Positions 1,136 to 16,037 of a stretch of 64,000 bases of DNA are shown here, one piece after another. Position numbers and translations under genes: made by a program. Source of the stretch: Escherichia coli (GTDB lineage Bacteria; Pseudomonadota; Gammaproteobacteria; Enterobacterales; Enterobacteriaceae); NCBI RefSeq assembly GCF_003334815.1, contig NZ_QOWO01000006.1, one strand, 5' to 3'. The notes beneath the pieces are model-generated. The model was not told the origin of the DNA. It did no database searches and was given only the letters and a program-made list of their open reading frames with translations. Every line of letters starts with the position of its first letter. Positions within the stretch are counted from its first letter, which is position 1.

Positions 1136-4100
1136 TTATTCCGGGCGCGGCTTCAGCGGGAAGCGGCGGCGCACCAGCACAAAGAACAGCGGCACGAAGT
1201 AAATAGCCAGAATAGTGGCCGAAATCATCCCGCCCATTACGCCAGTACCCACCGCATGCTGACCACCGGAACCGGCACCCGTGCTGGTTGCCATTGGCAA
1301 TACGCCGAAGATAAATGCCAGCGAGGTCATCAGAATCGGGCGTAAACGCTGACGGCAGGCGTGGAGCGTCGCTTCAAACAGGTCGTGGCCTTTTTGGTTC
1401 ATCTCGTTAGCAAACTCGACGATCAGGATGGCGTTTTTCGCCGATAAACCAATGACCGTTAACAGGCCCACCTGGAAGTAAACGTCGTTTTCCAGCCCGC
1501 GCATCCAGGTTGCCAGCAGCGCGCCGATTACCCCCAGCGGCACGACCAGCATTACCGAGAACGGCACCGACCAGCTTTCATACAACGCAGCCAGACACAG
1601 GAATACCACCAGCAAGGAAATGGCGTACAGCGCCGGAGCCTGCGCGCCGGAAAGCCGCTCCTGATACGACATCGCCGTCCACTCCAGACCAAAGCCGTTT
1701 GGCAGCTGCTTCACTAACGATTCCATAATATCCATCGCCGTACCGGTACTGACCCCCGGTGCGGCTTCCCCAACAATCTCAACCGCAGAATAACCGTTAT
1801 AGCGTTCCAGACGCGGCGAGCCTGTTTCCCAGCGTGAGGTCGCGAAAGCAGAGAAGGGCACCATGCCGCCATCTTTATTTCGGACATACCAGAGATTGAT
1901 GTCATCTGGCAGCATGCGATACGGCGCAGCTGCCTGCACATAGACTTTCTTCACGCGACCGCGATCCATAAAGTCATTCACATAGCTCGAACCCCAGGCG
2001 GTTTGCAGTGTGTCGTTAATATCGTCGATAGCAACGCCCAGCGCCTGAGCTTTACGCTGGTCGATATCAATCTGCAACTGCGGACTGTCGTCGAGGCCGT
2101 TATGGCGCACACGGGTTAGCTCCGGGTTTTCCGCCGCCAGCGCCAGCAACTGATTACGTGCTGCCATCAGCGCATCGTGACCCGCTCCAGCGTGGTCCTG
2201 CAACTCCATATCAAAACCTGCAGAACTACCAAGACCGCTAATTGCTGGCGGGCTGCTGGCGATAACGCGAGCTTCTTTAATTTGGTTAAACGCCTTCGTT
2301 GCACGCTCGATAATGGCAAACGAGGTGCCGGTCTTACTGTCGCGTTCGCTCCAGTCTTTCAGGCGGATAAACATTCGCGCCACGTTTTGCCCGTTACCCC
2401 CAGGGCCAGAACCAACGGTGGCAAACACCGACATGATGTTGTCTTTTTCATGGGTGAAGTAGTATTTCTCGATTTGCTCAACGACTTTCAGGGTCTGTTG
2501 TTGCGTTGAACCGCTGGGCAACTGTACCGAGGTAGTAAACATGCCACGGTCTTCCAGCGGTAAGAACGACGTCGGCAAACGCAGGAACAGGAACACCATG
2601 CCGCCAAGCAGCAGGACATAAATCACAATCCAGCGCAGGCTACGGTGGAGAATTTTCGCCACCCCTTTTTCGTAGCGTTCGGCGTTGCGGTTAAACATCT
2701 GGTTAAACCAGGCAAAAAAGCCTTTTTGCCCATGATGCTCACCTTTTTTCAGTGGCTTAAGTAGTGTGGCACACAGAGCCGGAGTGAGGATCATCGCTAC
2801 CAGTACTGACAGCACCATCGCCGCAACAATGGTAATAGAGAACTGGCGATAGATGGCACCGGTGGTGCCGCCGAAGAAGGCCATTGGTACAAATACCGCC
2901 GAAAGAACCATCGCAATCCCGACCAGTGCCCCCTGGATCTGCCCCATCGATTTACGTGTGGCTTCGCGAGGAGTGAGTCCTTCCTCACTCATAATACGTT
3001 CGACGTTTTCCACCACCACGATGGCGTCATCCACCAGCAGACCGATCGCCAGCACCATCGCGAACATGGTTAAGGTGTTGACGCTGTAACCGAAGGCGTA
3101 AAGTACGGAGAAGGTTCCCATCAACACCACCGGCACGGCGATAGTGGGTATCAGCGTGGCGCGGAAGTTTTGCAGGAACAGATACATAACGAGGAAAACC
3201 AGAGCGATAGCTTCCAGCAGCGTTTTCACCACGTCTTCAATGGAGGCTTTAACAAACGAGGTGGTTTCATACGCCACCTTGTATTCCAGTCCATGCGGGA
3301 AATACTGCGCCAGCTCGTCGAGACGATTGAGCACCAGCTCCGCTGTCGCCATTTCGTTAGCGCCGGAGGCCAGTTTTACCCCCAGCCCGGAGGCTGGCTT
3401 ACCATTGAAGCGGCTAAGATAATCGTATTTCTCCGCCCCCATTTCGACGGTGGCGACATCGCCCAGCCTTACCTCTGAGCCGTCCTGATTGACCCGCAAG
3501 GTGATATCGCGGAACTGTTCTGGTGTTTGCAGCAGTGACTGGGCGTTAATGGTGGCGTTGAGCGCCTGCTTATCGACGGAAGGTGTACCACCAAGTTGCC
3601 CAACCGCAATCTGCGCGTTCTGTGACTCAATGGCATCAGTGACATCTTTAGCCGTCATCTGGAAACTGTTGAGTTTCGCCGGGTCCAGCCAGATACGCAT
3701 GGAATATTGCGAACCATAGGCATCGATATCCCCGACGCCATTCACGCGGCTTAACGGGTCCTGAATATTACTGGCAACATAATCAGCAATATCCTGTTTA
3801 TCCATCGAACCATCGGTAGAGACGAAGGCAATGGTCAGAATGTTGGTATCGCCGGTTTTACGCACCGTCACGCCCTGATTTTGCACCGCCTGCGGTAACT
3901 TTCGCATGGCTGATTGCAGCTGGTTTTGTACTTGCTGCACGGCTTCGTCCGGATCGGTGCCTGCTTTAAAACTTAAAGTGACAGATGCCTGACCGGTGCC
4001 ACTGCTCTGAGATGACATATACATGAGATTATCGAGGCCGGTCATATTTTGCTCGATAACCTGGGTCACGGTGTTTTCCAGCGTCTGGGCCGATGCGCCG

Positions 4101-6317: not shown

Positions 6318-8297
6318 ATGAATCGTTTTATTATGGCCAACAGTCAGCAATGTCTGGGTTGTCATGCTTGTGAAATCGCCTGTGTCATGGCTCACAATGA
6401 TGAGCAACATGTCCTGAGCCAACACCATTTTCATCCCCGAATTACGGTTATCAAACATCAACAGCAACGTAGTGCAGTGACCTGTCACCATTGTGAAGAT
6501 GCGCCCTGCGCCCGTAGCTGCCCTAATGGCGCAATCAGCCACGTTGATGACAGCATTCAGGTCAATCAGCAAAAGTGTATTGGCTGTAAATCCTGCGTGG
6601 TGGCCTGTCCTTTTGGTACGATGCAAATCGTCCTGACACCCGTCGCGGCAGGAAAAGTAAAAGCCACGGCGCATAAATGCGACCTTTGTGCGGGGCGCGA
6701 AAACGGTCCTGCCTGTGTTGAGAATTGCCCGGCGGACGCGCTGCAACTGGTCACTGACGTCGCACTCTCCGGCATGGCGAAATCCCGCCGCTTGCGCACC
6801 GCGCGTCAGGAACATCAACCGTGGCATGCCAGTACCGCGGCGCAAGAAATGCCGGTAATGAGTAAAGTCGAACAAATGCAGGCAACGCCCGCGCGTGGCG
6901 AGCCGGATAAACTGGCGATTGAAGCGCGCAAAACCGGTTTTGATGAAATTTATCTGCCATTTCGCGCCGACCAGGCACAACGGGAAGCCTCGCGCTGCCT
7001 TAAGTGCGGCGAGCACAGCGTTTGTGAATGGACCTGCCCGCTGCATAACCATATACCGCAGTGGATTGAACTGGTGAAAGCCGGAAACATCGACGCCGCC
7101 GTCGAGCTTTCTCACCAGACCAACACCCTGCCGGAAATTACCGGACGCGTTTGTCCGCAAGACCGTTTGTGTGAAGGTGCCTGTACTATTCGCGATGAGC
7201 ACGGCGCGGTAACTATCGGCAACATTGAACGCTACATTTCAGATCAGGCGTTGGCGAAAGGTTGGCGTCCTGACTTAAGCCATGTCACCAAAGTGGACAA
7301 GCGGGTGGCGATTATCGGTGCAGGTCCGGCAGGGCTGGCCTGTGCGGATGTTCTGACCCGCAATGGCGTGGGGGTGACGGTGTACGATCGCCATCCAGAA
7401 ATCGGTGGCTTGCTCACTTTCGGCATTCCTTCTTTCAAACTGGATAAATCCCTGCTGGCACGCCGTCGGGAAATCTTCAGCGCGATGGGGATTCACTTCG
7501 AACTCAATTGTGAAGTGGGTAAAGATGTCTCTTTGGATTCGCTTTTGGAACAATACGACGCGGTCTTCGTTGGCGTAGGCACTTACCGTTCCATGAAAGC
7601 GGGTTTACCCAATGAAGATGCGCCGGGCGTTTATGACGCGCTGCCGTTCCTCATTGCCAACACTAAACAGGTGATGGGGCTCGAAGAGCTACCGGAAGAG
7701 CCGTTTATCAATACCGCCGGACTTAACGTCGTGGTACTGGGCGGCGGCGACACCGCGATGGACTGTGTGCGTACCGCACTGCGCCACGGCGCGAGTAACG
7801 TCACCTGCGCTTATCGTCGTGATGAAGCTAACATGCCAGGCTCGAAGAAAGAAGTGAAGAACGCCCGCGAAGAGGGGGCCAACTTCGAATTTAACGTCCA
7901 GCCGGTGGCGCTTGAGCTGAATGAACAAGGTCACGTCTGCGGGATTCGTTTCCTGCGCACGCGTCTTGGAGAGCCGGATGCCCAGGGGCGTCGGCGTCCA
8001 GTGCCGGTGGAAGGCAGTGAATTTGTCATGCCAGCCGACGCGGTGATTATGGCGTTTGGCTTCAATCCGCACGGGATGCCGTGGCTGGAGTCGCACGGTG
8101 TAACGGTAGACAAATGGGGCCGCATCATCGCGGATGTGGAAAGCCAGTACCGTTACCAGACCACCAATCCGAAAATCTTCGCTGGTGGTGACGCCGTGCG
8201 TGGTGCGGATCTGGTGGTTACCGCAATGGCAGAAGGACGTCATGCGGCACAGGGGATTATTGACTGGCTGGGGGTAAAATCAGTCAAATCTCACTGA
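6318..8297 (+). CDS. aegA: Fe-S cluster oxidoreductase AegA (glutamate synthase small-subunit-like, 659 aa)
   Basis: N-terminal 4Fe-4S ferredoxin cysteine clusters (CxxCxxCxxxCP repeats) followed by a GltD-like FAD/NAD(P) domain (IIGAGPAGLACA). Confidence 0.93.
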   Translation: MNRFIMANSQQCLGCHACEIACVMAHNDEQHVLSQHHFHPRITVIKHQQQRSAVTCHHCEDAPCARSCPNGAISHVDDSIQVNQQKCIGCKSCVVACPFGTMQIVLTPVAAGKVKATAHKCDLCAGRENGPACVENCPADALQLVTDVALSGMAKSRRLRTARQEHQPWHASTAAQEMPVMSKVEQMQATPARGEPDKLAIEARKTGFDEIYLPFRADQAQREASRCLKCGEHSVCEWTCPLHNHIPQWIELVKAGNIDAAVELSHQTNTLPEITGRVCPQDRLCEGACTIRDEHGAVTIGNIERYISDQALAKGWRPDLSHVTKVDKRVAIIGAGPAGLACADVLTRNGVGVTVYDRHPEIGGLLTFGIPSFKLDKSLLARRREIFSAMGIHFELNCEVGKDVSLDSLLEQYDAVFVGVGTYRSMKAGLPNEDAPGVYDALPFLIANTKQVMGLEELPEEPFINTAGLNVVVLGGGDTAMDCVRTALRHGASNVTCAYRRDEANMPGSKKEVKNAREEGANFEFNVQPVALELNEQGHVCGIRFLRTRLGEPDAQGRRRPVPVEGSEFVMPADAVIMAFGFNPHGMPWLESHGVTVDKWGRIIADVESQYRYQTTNPKIFAGGDAVRGADLVVTAMAEGRHAAQGIIDWLGVKSVKSH

Positions 8298-8364
8298 TAG
8301 CCTGCGCAGACAAACCCGACTTCACAGCGTAAGATAATTGTTCATTTCGCGCTGTGGAGTCGGT

Positions 8365-8940
8365 ATGACGCAACAAATCACCCTCATTAAAGACAAAATT
8401 CTCTCCGATAACTATTTCACCCTGCACAACATTACTTACGATCTCACGCGCAAAGACGGCGAAGTTATCCGCCATAAACGTGAAGTGTACGATCGCGGCA
8501 ATGGTGCGACGATCCTCCTGTACAACACGAAGAAAAAGACCGTGGTTCTGATTCGTCAGTTCCGTGTCGCTACCTGGGTTAATGGCAATGAAAGCGGGCA
8601 GCTGATTGAAAGCTGCGCCGGGCTGCTGGATAACGACGAACCGGAAGTGTGTATTCGCAAAGAAGCGATTGAAGAGACGGGCTATGAAGTGGGTGAAGTG
8701 CGCAAATTATTTGAACTGTATATGTCGCCAGGCGGTGTGACTGAGCTAATCCACTTTTTTATCGCCGAATACAGTGACAATCAGCGCGCTAACGCCGGTG
8801 GCGGTGTCGAAGATGAAGATATTGAAGTGCTCGAGCTGCCGTTCAGCCAGGCGCTGGAGATGATCAAAACCGGCGAGATACGTGACGGTAAGACGGTGTT
8901 ATTGCTTAACTATTTGCAAACGTCACATTTAATGGACTGA
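8365..8940 (+). CDS. nudK: Nudix hydrolase NudK (GDP-mannose pyrophosphatase, 191 aa)
   Basis: Track ORF trimmed to the ATG at 8365 ([13 protein letters not shown]); Nudix box present ([21 protein letters not shown]). Confidence 0.9.
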
Positions 8941-9065
8941 AAAATAACAATAATATTTCGTTGTTTATTATTGGCTCAATCCGACAAATCCGATTGAGCC
9001 GCGCTACCTGCGCAACGAAGATACGACTTGTGCTGTTTGTTTGAACTTCTGGGGTCGTACCGTCC

Positions 9066-10109
9066 ATGCGCTATCGCATTTTCCTTCTCTTTTTTTTCGC
9101 TTTGTTGCCGACGTCTTTGGTGTGGGCGGCACCAGCGCAACGGGCGTTTTCCGACTGGCAGGTCACCTGTAATAACCAAAATTTCTGCGTGGCGCGTAAT
9201 ACGGGCGATCATAATGGACTGGTGATGACCCTGAGCCGCAGCGCCGGGGCGCATACCGATGCCGTTTTACGTATTGAGCGCGGCGGATTGAAGTCGCCGG
9301 AGGCGTCAGAAGGGGAGATAGCGCCACGGCTGCTGTTAGATGGCGAGCCGTTGGCGTTAAGTGGTGACAAGTGGCGGATTTCACCATGGTTATTAGTAAC
9401 CGATGATACGGCAACCATCACCGCGTTTTTGCAGATGATTCAGGAAGGGAAGGCAATCACCTTACGCGATGGCGATCAGACCATTTCTCTGAGTGGCTTA
9501 AAAGCAGCGTTGTTGTTTATTGATGCTCAGCAAAAGCGCGTTGGCAGTGAAACCGCGTGGATCAAGAAAGGGGACGAACCGCCGCTCAGCGTACCGCCCG
9601 CGCCTGCGCTGAAAGAGGTCGCGGTGGTTAACCCAACGCCGACGCCACTCTCACTCGAAGAACGCAACGATTTGCTGGATTATGGAAACTGGCGGATGAA
9701 TGGTCTGCGCTGCTCGCTTGATCCATTGCGTCGTGAGGTGAATGTCACTGCGCTGACTGATGATAAAGCGCTGATGATGATTAGCTGTGAGGCAGGGGCC
9801 TATAACACCATTGATTTGGCATGGATTGTGTCGCGTAAAAAGCCACTAGCTTCGCGCCCGGTTCGGTTGCGTTTGCCGTTCAACAACGGTCAGGAGACGA
9901 ATGAACTGGAACTGATGAACGCAACATTTGATGAGAAATCGCGTGAACTGGTGACCTTAGCGAAAGGGCGCGGATTAAGCGATTGTGGCATTCAGGCGCG
10001 CTGGCGCTTTGACGGTCAGCGTTTTCGCCTGGTGCGTTACGCCGCAGAACCCACCTGCGATAACTGGCATGGGCCAGACGCCTGGCCCACGTTGTGGATC
10101 ACCCGTTAA
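9066..10109 (+). CDS. ypfG: DUF1176-family periplasmic protein YpfG (signal peptide)
   Basis: N-terminal signal peptide MRYRIFLLFFFALLPTSLVWA; matches K-12 YpfG as recalled. Confidence 0.85.
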   Translation: MRYRIFLLFFFALLPTSLVWAAPAQRAFSDWQVTCNNQNFCVARNTGDHNGLVMTLSRSAGAHTDAVLRIERGGLKSPEASEGEIAPRLLLDGEPLALSGDKWRISPWLLVTDDTATITAFLQMIQEGKAITLRDGDQTISLSGLKAALLFIDAQQKRVGSETAWIKKGDEPPLSVPPAPALKEVAVVNPTPTPLSLEERNDLLDYGNWRMNGLRCSLDPLRREVNVTALTDDKALMMISCEAGAYNTIDLAWIVSRKKPLASRPVRLRLPFNNGQETNELELMNATFDEKSRELVTLAKGRGLSDCGIQARWRFDGQRFRLVRYAAEPTCDNWHGPDAWPTLWITR

Positions 10110-10125
10110 ACAAAATGGCGGGACA

Positions 10126-10203
10126 TGTAGGCCGGATAAGACGCTGTAGGCCGGATAAGACGCGTCAGCGTCGCATCCGGCAATCAGCATCCGGCAATCA
10201 CCA
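10126..10203. repeat. REP (repetitive extragenic palindrome) cluster between ypfG and tktB
   Basis: Two GTAGGCCGGATAAGACGC units plus inverted GCGTCGCATCCGGCA units. Confidence 0.8.
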
Positions 10204-12207
10204 TCAGGCACCTTTCACTCCCAGCACCTTATGCGCTTTTGCCACAATATTCTCGGCGGTAAAGCCAAAGAACGGGAACAGCTTATCCGCCGGAGCAGAT
10301 TCCCCGTAACCCGTCATCCCGACAATTGCCCCTTTCAGACCAACATACTTGTACCAGTAATCGGCAATACCTGCTTCCACCGCCACGCGAGCCGCAACGT
10401 TAGAAGGCAACACCGACTCCCGATATTCCTCATCCTGGGCGTCGAAAATATCGGTCGAGGGCAGGGAAACTACGCGTACATTGCGACCTTCTCCTGCTAA
10501 TTTCTCTGCCGCTTGCAGGGTAATTTCCATCTCTGAACCGGTGGCAATCAGAATAATATCTGGCTTACCGCCGCTGTCTTTCAGCACATAACCGCCACGA
10601 GCAATCTCTTTAACCTGATCCGGCGTACGTTCCACCTGGGCCAGATTCTGCCTTGAGAGGATCAGTGCCGTCGGTCCGTTGTGGCGCTCAACCGCCAGCT
10701 TCCAGCCCACCGCCGCTTCCACCTGATCGCACGGTCGCCAGGTGCTGAAATTTGGCGTTAAGCGCAGGCTGGCCAGTTGCTCAACAGCCTGGTGCGTCGG
10801 ACCATCTTCGCCCAGGCCAATTGAGTCGTGGGTATAAACCATAATCTGCCGCGCTTTCATCAGTGCCGCCATCCGCGCGGCGTTACGGGCGTATTCAACA
10901 AACATCAGGAACGTCGCGGTATACGGCACAAAGCCGCCGTGGTGCGCGATGCCGTTGGCGATAGCGGTCATGCCAAATTCACGCACCCCGTAGTGAATGT
11001 AGTTGCCCGCTGGATCTTCCTTCAGCGAAACAGAACCTTTCCAGATGGTCAGGTTGCTGGGAGCCAGATCCGCCGAACCGCCGAGCAACTCAGGCAGCAT
11101 CGGCCCGTAAGCGTTAAGCGTATTTTGCGAAGCCTTACGGGTAGCGATTTTCGCCGGATTTGCCTGTAACTCATTGATATATTTCTGAGTCGTTTTCTCC
11201 CAGTCCTTCGGTAAACCACCGCTCATCCGTCGGGTAAACTCTTCTGCCAGTTGCGGATGAGCCTTTTTATAGGCGGCAAACTTCTCATTCCAGCTCTGCT
11301 GCGCTTTTTCGCCTTTTTCACGGGCATCCCAGGCGTGATAAATCTCTTTAGGGATCTCAAATGGCGGATGGTGCCAGCCCAGTTTTTGCCGTGCCAGCGC
11401 CACTTCTTCTTCCCCCAGTGGTGCGCCGTGCGCCTCTTCCTTACCTGCTTTATTCGGCGAACCAAAGCCAATCACCGTACGGCAGATAATCAGCGACGGC
11501 TTATCTTTCACGCTTTGCGCTTCAAGGATCGCTTCCTTCACCGCCTGCGGATCGTGACCGTCGATTTCATGGATCACATGCCAGTGATAGGCTTCAAAAC
11601 GTTTTGCCGTATCGTCGGTAAACCAGCCTTCTGTTTCACCGTCGATGGAAATACCGTTGTGATCGTAAAAACCAATCAGCTTGCCCAGTCCCAGCGTGCC
11701 TGCCAGCGAACAGACTTCGTGGGAAATACCTTCCATCAGGCAGCCGTCGCCCATAAACACATAGGTGAAGTGATCGACGATCTCATGGTCTGGCTGGTTA
11801 AACTGCGCCGCCAGTGTACGCTCTGCTATCGCCAGCCCGACGGCGTTCGCCAAACCTTGTCCAAGCGGGCCGGTGGTGGTTTCAACGCCTGGCGTATAGC
11901 CAATCTCCGGGTGGCCTGGGGTTTTCGAATGCAACTGACGGAAGTTCTTCAGTTCTTCCAGCGGCAGGTCGTAACCGGTCAGATGTAGCAAACTGTAGAG
12001 CAGCATCGACGCGTGACCGTTGGAAAGAATAAAGCGGTCGCGATCATACCAGGTTGGGTCGGTAGGGTTATGTTTAAGAAAATCGTTCCACAGCACTTCG
12101 GCAATATCAGCCATGCCCATCGGCGCGCCGGGATGACCAGAGTTGGCTTTTTGTACCGCATCCATACTGAGTGCGCGAATCGCATTGGCAAGGTCTTTTC
12201 GGGACAT
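10204..12207 (-). CDS. tktB: Transketolase 2 (667 aa)
   Basis: Track ORF trimmed to [31 protein letters not shown]; adjacent to talA as in the K-12 talA-tktB operon. Confidence 0.95.
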
Positions 12208-15745: not shown

Positions 15746-16037
15746 TTTTTTTTAACTCTCACGCTTACCCTGAATATTCAGGGTAAGCAGTTTAGCTGCA
15801 ATATATTAGTAAAGCTTATTACTGAGTTTGCGAATAATAAAAAAAAGCAGTCTATATAATATCTCGATATTATTTTATTTATATTCATGCGTTGCATATG
15901 AAAGTTTATGCACCACAGCGAATATCTCTCCATTCTTAGTGATCTACCTCACCTTTTAAACGCGCTTGCCGAATTTTGTTATTTACTCTGACGAAAAATT
16001 GTCACGATACACGAAAGTTTTTCACAGGCGGCGACTC

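Follow-up and report, generated by a model that had tools for sequence, protein, structure and literature searches.

The nudK-ypfG intergenic palindrome of Escherichia coli contains a predicted RcsB box next to the -35 hexamer of the ypfG promoter

A palindrome located at positions 8973-9000 of the analyzed window (the whole stretch of 64,000 nt of E. coli DNA) is centered on a predicted RcsB box, TCCGACAAATCCGA, on the plus strand at 8980-8993. The box consists of two TCCGA half-sites 4 bp apart, has its center at -43.5 relative to the mapped transcription start of ypfG and is predicted, with a probability of roughly 0.75, to be an RcsB site activating the ypfG promoter. The palindrome would make up the upstream half of this promoter, with the TCCGA-CAAA-TCCGA box in its center and the -35 hexamer TTGAGC in its right arm. 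Following envelope stress, the Rcs phosphorelay would become active and a phosphorylated RcsB dimer would occupy the box, positioned directly against the -35 hexamer as at rprA, where it would recruit or stabilize RNA polymerase at the weak ypfG promoter. This would then switch on ypfG, the product of which is an exported DUF1176 protein.

Damage to the outer membrane or to lipoprotein traffic repeatedly places the uncharacterized gene ypfG among the top-induced genes, and a conserved RcsB-type box at -43.5 would provide a direct mechanistic link between this gene and the Rcs envelope-stress pathway. The box is one more, previously undescribed, member of a well-understood class of sites, and no concept is changed by it. 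No earlier description of a ypfG RcsB box was found in the searchable literature, curated databases being outside this search, and the same literature yielded neither EMSA, footprint or ChIP results on RcsB at this box nor clean genetic evidence on ypfG.

Sequence and copy number of the palindrome

In a sequence-only reading of the window, a palindrome with a 9-bp stem and an internal AATCCGA direct repeat had been pointed out between nudK and ypfG, and direct reading of the window agrees with this description. The inverted repeat, GGCTCAATC-CGACAAATCC-GATTGAGCC, has perfect 9-bp arms, copies of AATCCGA are present at 8978-8984 and 8987-8993, and in the RefSeq annotation the palindrome is indeed flanked by nudK (8365-8940, plus strand) upstream and ypfG (9066-10109, plus strand) downstream. 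Using a repeat search, the arms could be extended to 12 nt with 92% complementarity around a CAAA loop; going inward, the 9 bp are followed by a C.C mismatch, 2 bp and the loop. As RNA, a 38-nt segment containing the palindrome folds with a predicted energy of -15.7 kcal/mol (z = -4.07 compared to shuffled sequences).

Like intrinsic terminators and REP elements, the palindrome is an intergenic inverted repeat located 3' of a gene. Unlike these elements, it lacks a U-tract, is present as a single copy, has no REP or Rfam match and has a stem that is not conserved. It was not listed in an intrinsic terminator scan, and the bases directly 3' of it, GCGCTACCTG, contain no T-run. An Rfam scan of positions 8000-10500 returned only a chance-level match to a plant microRNA at the palindrome (E = 8.6), whereas a true REP-type palindrome at 10149-10191, between ypfG and tktB, gave a partial match to naRNA4 (RF02564) on both strands. 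The palindrome is present exactly once in each of 5426 complete E. coli genomes (5426/5426). A search for the same palindrome elsewhere, as proposed in the sequence-only reading, yielded no second copy, either in these genomes or in the 64-kb window, and with a single copy and no REP-type Rfam match at the site the palindrome does not belong to the REP/BIME elements. The terminator scan, the Rfam scan and the copy count thus all support its description as not REP-like and lacking a terminator U-tract.

About 37% of the E. coli genomes differ from the window by one base within the 34-nt query. In both variant genomes sampled, the difference is C8991T, a common E. coli variant. This base is located in the C.C mismatch of the hairpin and at position 12 of the box, where the RcsB consensus permits C or T, and the substitution is neutral for the hairpin reading and the box reading alike.

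Perfect hairpins of at least 9 bp with loops of 3-12 nt were counted in the window and in dinucleotide shuffles. About 11 distinct hairpins, mostly terminators, are present in the window, compared to about 3.5 per 64-kb shuffled window. A single 9-bp hairpin is therefore not improbable by chance, and the case for the palindrome rests on its conservation and not on its stem. The hairpin census also contained a perfect palindrome without T-run at 15763-15788, GCTTACCCTGAATATTCAGGGTAAGC, with 11-bp arms and a 4-nt center.

The ypfG promoter and conservation of the intergenic region

Orthologous regions were collected by a NudK-based scan using one genome per species, resulting in 80 enterobacterial loci, in 77 of which ypfG directly follows nudK. 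A gap-free alignment was made of 74 distinct Enterobacteriaceae sequences representing about 20 genera; helix pairing was counted on 72 rows. Conserved sequence is confined to blocks comprising the box (8980-8993), the abutting TTGAGC (8994-8999) and, following a variable spacer of 17 nt (9000-9016), GAAGAT (9017-9022). In 74 of 75 tabulated sequences, T(C/G)(C/T)GA-N4-TC(C/T)(G/T)A followed by TTGAG is found upstream of ypfG, at -82 to -96 from the ATG. The information content is near 2 bits per column in the core (8979-8998) and 1.2-2.0 bits per column at 9017-9024 (GAAGATAC), compared to 0.07-0.8 bits in the spacer and only 0.5-1.1 bits in the left stem arm (8973-8978). Invariant columns are T1, G4, A5, T10, C11 and A14 of the box, one spacer A, the TTG of the -35 hexamer and the last T of the -10 hexamer. 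Conservation across species, proposed as a check in the sequence-only reading, is therefore present at the level of sequence, the inner part of the palindrome being nearly invariant.

Together, these blocks very probably form the ypfG promoter. All elements of a sigma-70 promoter are present on the plus strand: the -35 hexamer TTGAGC, which accounts for the larger part of the palindrome's right arm, a spacer of 17 nt, the -10 hexamer GAAGAT, and 7 nt to a start at 9030. All 74 sequences have the TTG of the -35 hexamer and 73 each have its A and its G; in the -10 hexamer, T6 is found in all of them and A2 and A5 in 71 each. The spacer is variable in sequence and constant in length across genera, with 18 nt in three loci. 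GAAGAT agrees with the -10 element at only three of six positions, for which reason a simple promoter scan left the TTGAGC/GAAGAT pair unreported. Such a weak -10 hexamer is consistent with activator dependence.

A start near 9029-9030 was predicted from the conserved hexamer geometry. In the supplementary transcription start table of Kim et al. 2012 (PMC3415461), a ypfG (b2466) start with a 36-nt 5' UTR is listed, based on only 14 reads. The upstream sequence given there, TCCGACAAATCCGATTGAGCCGCGCTACCTGCGCAACGAAGATACGACTTG, is identical to window positions 8980-9030, and the experimentally mapped start is G9030 on the plus strand. This start places the box at -50 to -37, the -35 hexamer at -36 to -31 and the -10 hexamer at -13 to -8. 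A sigma-28 promoter (TCCGATAA, resembling GCCGATAA) was also considered and rejected, because the mapped start disagrees with it and a TAAA -35 element is missing where the spacing would require one.

The 36-nt 5' UTR (9030-9065, plus strand) carries a conserved CTGGGGTYGTRCCGTYC block ahead of the ATG. Positions 9047-9068, CTGGGGTCGTACCGTCCATG, up to and including the ypfG start codon, are almost invariant across genera (consensus CTGGGGTYGTRCCGTYCATG). The sole Shine-Dalgarno-like run before ypfG, GGGG, is about 11-14 nt away from the ATG, an unusually long distance, and the 9047-9068 block may be conserved because of translational control or as the target of a small RNA. Within ypfG, TGGCAGGTCACCTGTAAT at 9156-9173 corresponds to an intragenic site bound by sigma-54 that was reported in Salmonella ypfG, TGGCAGGTCACCTGCAAT (PMC3844500). 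In the -12 element, the E. coli copy has GT and not the critical GC.

Transcription of ypfG from the mapped start at 9030 begins 30 nt past the palindrome, which is therefore located entirely upstream and is absent from the ypfG mRNA. Two functions had been suggested for the palindrome in the sequence-only reading, a protein-binding site and an RNA structure in the ypfG 5' UTR. The former is favored here, the core of the palindrome being a deeply conserved RcsB-type box against the -35 hexamer. The latter, a riboregulator or protein-binding hairpin in the leader, has next to no probability: the position upstream of ypfG and the predicted stability speak for it, but it is contradicted by the mapped start, the conserved -35/-10 geometry puts the start there in all genera, Rfam gave nothing beyond the chance-level microRNA match, and the covariation expected of a structured cis-regulatory RNA is absent.

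Conservation of the stem in closely related genomes, whose absence was named as a refutation in the sequence-only reading, fails at the level of structure. Pair 6-33 (alignment numbering) is unpaired in 64 of 72 rows, pair 8-31 in 56, pair 11-28 in 46 and pairs 7-32 and 9-30 in 38 each, the outer pairs being mostly unpaired outside Escherichia and Kluyvera. In a covariation test on the 74-sequence alignment, no measure exceeded that of shuffles, and the fraction of paired stem cells (66.9%) was below the shuffled mean. The 38-mers equivalent to the E. coli segment have a median folding energy of -3.7 kcal/mol over the 74 sequences, versus -15.7 kcal/mol in E. coli, and -10 kcal/mol or below is reached by only six of 74. 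In per-species folding, a stable stem was restricted to Escherichia, a single Kluyvera and a small number of others. Because the outer pairs are broken in most sequences and folding is weak elsewhere, the stem is not a conserved structure, and the unvarying pairs are no more than symmetric positions within a conserved DNA motif. For genome scanning, this means that a perfect palindrome near a gene start can be a dimeric transcription factor site fused to a -35 hexamer and not a hairpin.

In E. coli, the dyad center of the hairpin coincides with the center of the RcsB-type box, itself a dyad-symmetric site, and the inner stem of 5 bp (CAATC/GATTG) follows partly from the symmetry of this site. 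The left flank C-A/T-A (8977-8979), semi-conserved throughout the genera, is complementary to the invariant TTG, and this pairing accounts for the 3-5 flank pairs in Salmonella, Citrobacter, Pseudocitrobacter and others. The outermost four pairs, GGCT/AGCC (8973-8976/8997-9000), are not conserved and are shared only by Escherichia and its closest relatives. Citrobacter has GGC-CAA, and part of GGCT/AGCC is thus ancestral to that clade. These four pairs are probably incidental: the chance of four extra pairs is about 1 in 256 per lineage, some twenty lineages are involved and the site was picked for its perfection, so no special explanation is needed.

The 9-bp hairpin of Escherichia might in addition act on nudK read-through RNA, as a protective hairpin at the 3' end or as a weak terminator. 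It starts 33 nt past the nudK stop codon and is stable in E. coli, no terminator-like site is present between nudK and ypfG, nudK lacks a canonical intrinsic terminator, and the intergenic RNA folds better than shuffles (z = -3.3). Such an additional role is nevertheless improbable, considering the missing U-tract, the absence of the stem from most genera with nudK-ypfG synteny and of covariation within it, the lack of a Term-seq 3' end near the hairpin in the supplementary tables of Adams et al. 2021, and the fact that the element is not kept in genomes having nudK without ypfG.

This last point is illustrated by loci in which ypfG is missing. None of the three nudK loci without ypfG (L004, L057 and L058) contains an intact box. 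Among genomes of this kind, two from Pluralibacter have nudK next to tktB and no box. In E. albertii (locus L004, 3576-3740), ypfG has been lost and the equivalent of window positions 9026-10145 is replaced by REP sequence. The promoter remnant in this species carries a 9-nt deletion by which one half-site is gone, together with changes at otherwise invariant positions (GATTGAG to GGTTGAA and GAAGAT to GAATAT). As the box is lost where ypfG is lost and does not travel with nudK, the element belongs to ypfG and not to nudK. The same loss, and the near-invariance of the core amid intergenic flanks that are saturated with changes across genera, make it highly improbable that the palindrome is a functionless product of chance, even though shuffled windows readily yield perfect 9-bp hairpins and the four outermost pairs are lineage-specific.

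In ten loci (Klebsiella, Raoultella and related ones), nudK is 3-7 codons longer (about 3569-3600 in the locus). In these loci, the end of the nudK reading frame contains or overlaps the ypfG box and the -35 hexamer, and the nudK-ypfG intergenic region measures only 65-79 nt.

The Escherichia left arm, GGCTCAA, is a mirror image of the -35 hexamer, so that TTGAGC flanks the box on both strands. The left arm thereby creates a promoter-like TTGAGC-18 nt-TATTAT, with a good -10 hexamer, on the minus strand (8979 to 8950), directed antisense into the 3' end of nudK. That one RcsB dimer fires divergent promoters, for ypfG and for a lineage-specific antisense RNA, is a long shot. No antisense start for the minus-strand site is among the starts listed by Kim et al. 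2012, a table that seems to hold gene-assigned starts only. If true, the divergent RNA would tie envelope stress to mRNA control of nudK, which encodes a GDP-mannose hydrolase, and this control would possibly affect the supply of colanic-acid precursors.

Comparison of the box with RcsB sites

The structure-derived RcsB consensus, TN(G/A)GAN4TC(T/C)NA, consists of two inverted pseudo-repeats 4 bp apart (PMC7913699). The ypfG box agrees with seven of its eight specified positions, the exception being C instead of a purine at position 3. All six fixed positions of the consensus coincide with invariant columns of the 74-sequence alignment, and the only bases found at position 12 are the permitted C and T, so that the contacted positions of the box are conserved in orthologous ypfG promoters. 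The box also occupies the position expected for activation, immediately 5' of the -35 hexamer with no gap between them.

At position 3, every genus carries a pyrimidine (T in Klebsiella). Since the consensus requires a purine here, a search with the strict RcsB pattern gave no match at the ypfG box, and strict scans (TNRGA...) will in general miss real candidates with a pyrimidine at position 3 of the distal half-site. Accepted boxes, among them those of osmB, bdm and Salmonella rcsA, have one such mismatch to the consensus as well. In mutagenesis of the RcsB recognition triplets, non-consensus variants such as TGA diminished binding, and the distal half-site of the ypfG box is probably weak, or read with a partner.

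The rprA box, TGAGACGAATCTGA (MG1655), is located at -49 to -36 and directly abuts the hexamer TCGACG. Both the rprA and the ypfG box are 14-bp pseudo-palindromes with 5-bp half-sites 4 bp apart, both abut the -35 hexamer at positions only one base apart, and the Rcs phosphorelay turns on expression of both genes. Toward the promoter, the half-site reads TCTGA in rprA; in ypfG it reads TCCGA or TCTGA. The distal halves differ, being TGAGA (consensus) at rprA and TCCGA, with its pyrimidine at position 3, at ypfG. DNA of the rprA box has been co-crystallized with RcsB and binding was proven by the crystal structure and EMSA, whereas for ypfG we infer both RcsB binding at the box and activation through it. 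The gene products differ as well, rprA specifying a small RNA and ypfG an exported protein.

Boxes scoring 7-8 out of 8 were found upstream of bdm, osmB, ycfJ and ygaC, the ycfJ box being predicted here. A right half-site TC(C/T)GA is common to the ypfG, rprA, ycfJ and ygaC boxes, and in ycfJ it is TCCGA, as at ypfG. In the osmB (TAAGATGATTCCTG) and bdm (TAAGATTAGTCCTG) boxes, the left half is the consensus AGA and the mismatch is at position 14, whereas the ypfG box deviates at position 3; the distances of the osmB and bdm boxes to the start codon also differ from that of ypfG. The RcsAB box of the capsule and rcsA promoters, TaAGaatatTCctA, has the same overall 14-bp geometry as the ypfG box. 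RcsAB boxes are usually located far upstream of the promoter and need RcsA. In contrast, the ypfG box lies directly next to the -35 hexamer, as in RcsA-independent promoters. The right half of the Salmonella rcsA box, TAAGGTTTATCCGA, is TCCGA, as in the ypfG box (PMC7913699).

A second, canonical RcsB-like box of the AGA-TAAA-TCT type, TCAGATAAATCTAT, is present 13 bp upstream of the main box, overlapping it by one base, in six loci and others of the Enterobacter/Lelliottia/Phytobacter group, and is absent from Escherichia. A second upstream box was rejected as a general feature because it is lineage-restricted: in the Enterobacter group it is at offset -13, and where it is at offset -9 it reuses the conserved half-site.

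ypfG expression and other candidate regulators

According to published transcriptome data, expression of ypfG tracks RcsB and activation of the Rcs pathway. Upon exposure to a LolCDE inhibitor, ypfG is upregulated 38-44-fold, along with osmB, ycfJ, bdm, wca genes, ypeC and rcsA; it is among the genes most strongly induced and is listed between ypeC and yaiY. In an rcsB-disrupted O157:H7 isolate, ypfG is downregulated 4.6-fold, as are bdm (-11.5), ycfJ (-25), ypeC (-24) and yjbE (-20), the isolate carrying a spontaneous disruption of rcsB rather than a clean deletion and the evidence being correlative, from transcriptome lists. osmB, bdm and ycfJ thus behave like ypfG in being up with Lol inhibition and down in the rcsB-disrupted strain. 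Exposure to complement upregulates ypfG, ycfJ and ygaC alike; in the study concerned, a Fur box was proposed for ypfG and no link to Rcs was drawn (PMC4145685).

Several features of the box leave room for a protein other than an RcsB homodimer. C2 and G13 are nearly invariant among the 74 sequences, beyond what the RcsB consensus requires, and the half-sites can be read as a direct repeat of TCYGA with a 9-bp period as well as an inverted one. These properties could point to a different or additional protein. The box might accordingly be bound by an RcsB heterodimer, with a partner such as RcsA, or by an unrelated regulator recognizing TCYGA-N4-TCYGA. The departure from the consensus at position 3 in every genus agrees with this, as does the observation that known RcsB partners change the distal half-site, with RcsB facing the promoter, and the published Fur box would be another candidate. 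We nonetheless consider these options unlikely. ypfG is co-regulated with the RcsA-independent targets osmB, bdm and ycfJ and is down in the rcsB-disrupted strain, and its layout is almost identical to that of the homodimer site at rprA. BglJ-RcsB sites are centered at about -57 to -79, compared to -43.5 for the ypfG box. Using simple pattern searches, no match to CpxR, PhoP, CRP, sigma-E, sigma-28 or Fur-hexamer patterns was found in the ypfG promoter region.

Activation by an RcsB dimer at 8980-8993 would correct the published guess of Fur control. The Fur-box prediction (PMC4145685) probably refers to the AT-rich stretch at 8948-8973, between the nudK stop codon and the palindrome. This stretch contains an AT-rich inverted repeat, CAATAATA/TATTATTG, of 8 bp with a 10-nt loop, and at the corresponding region ATATTTCTTTAC is common to Citrobacter and Salmonella.
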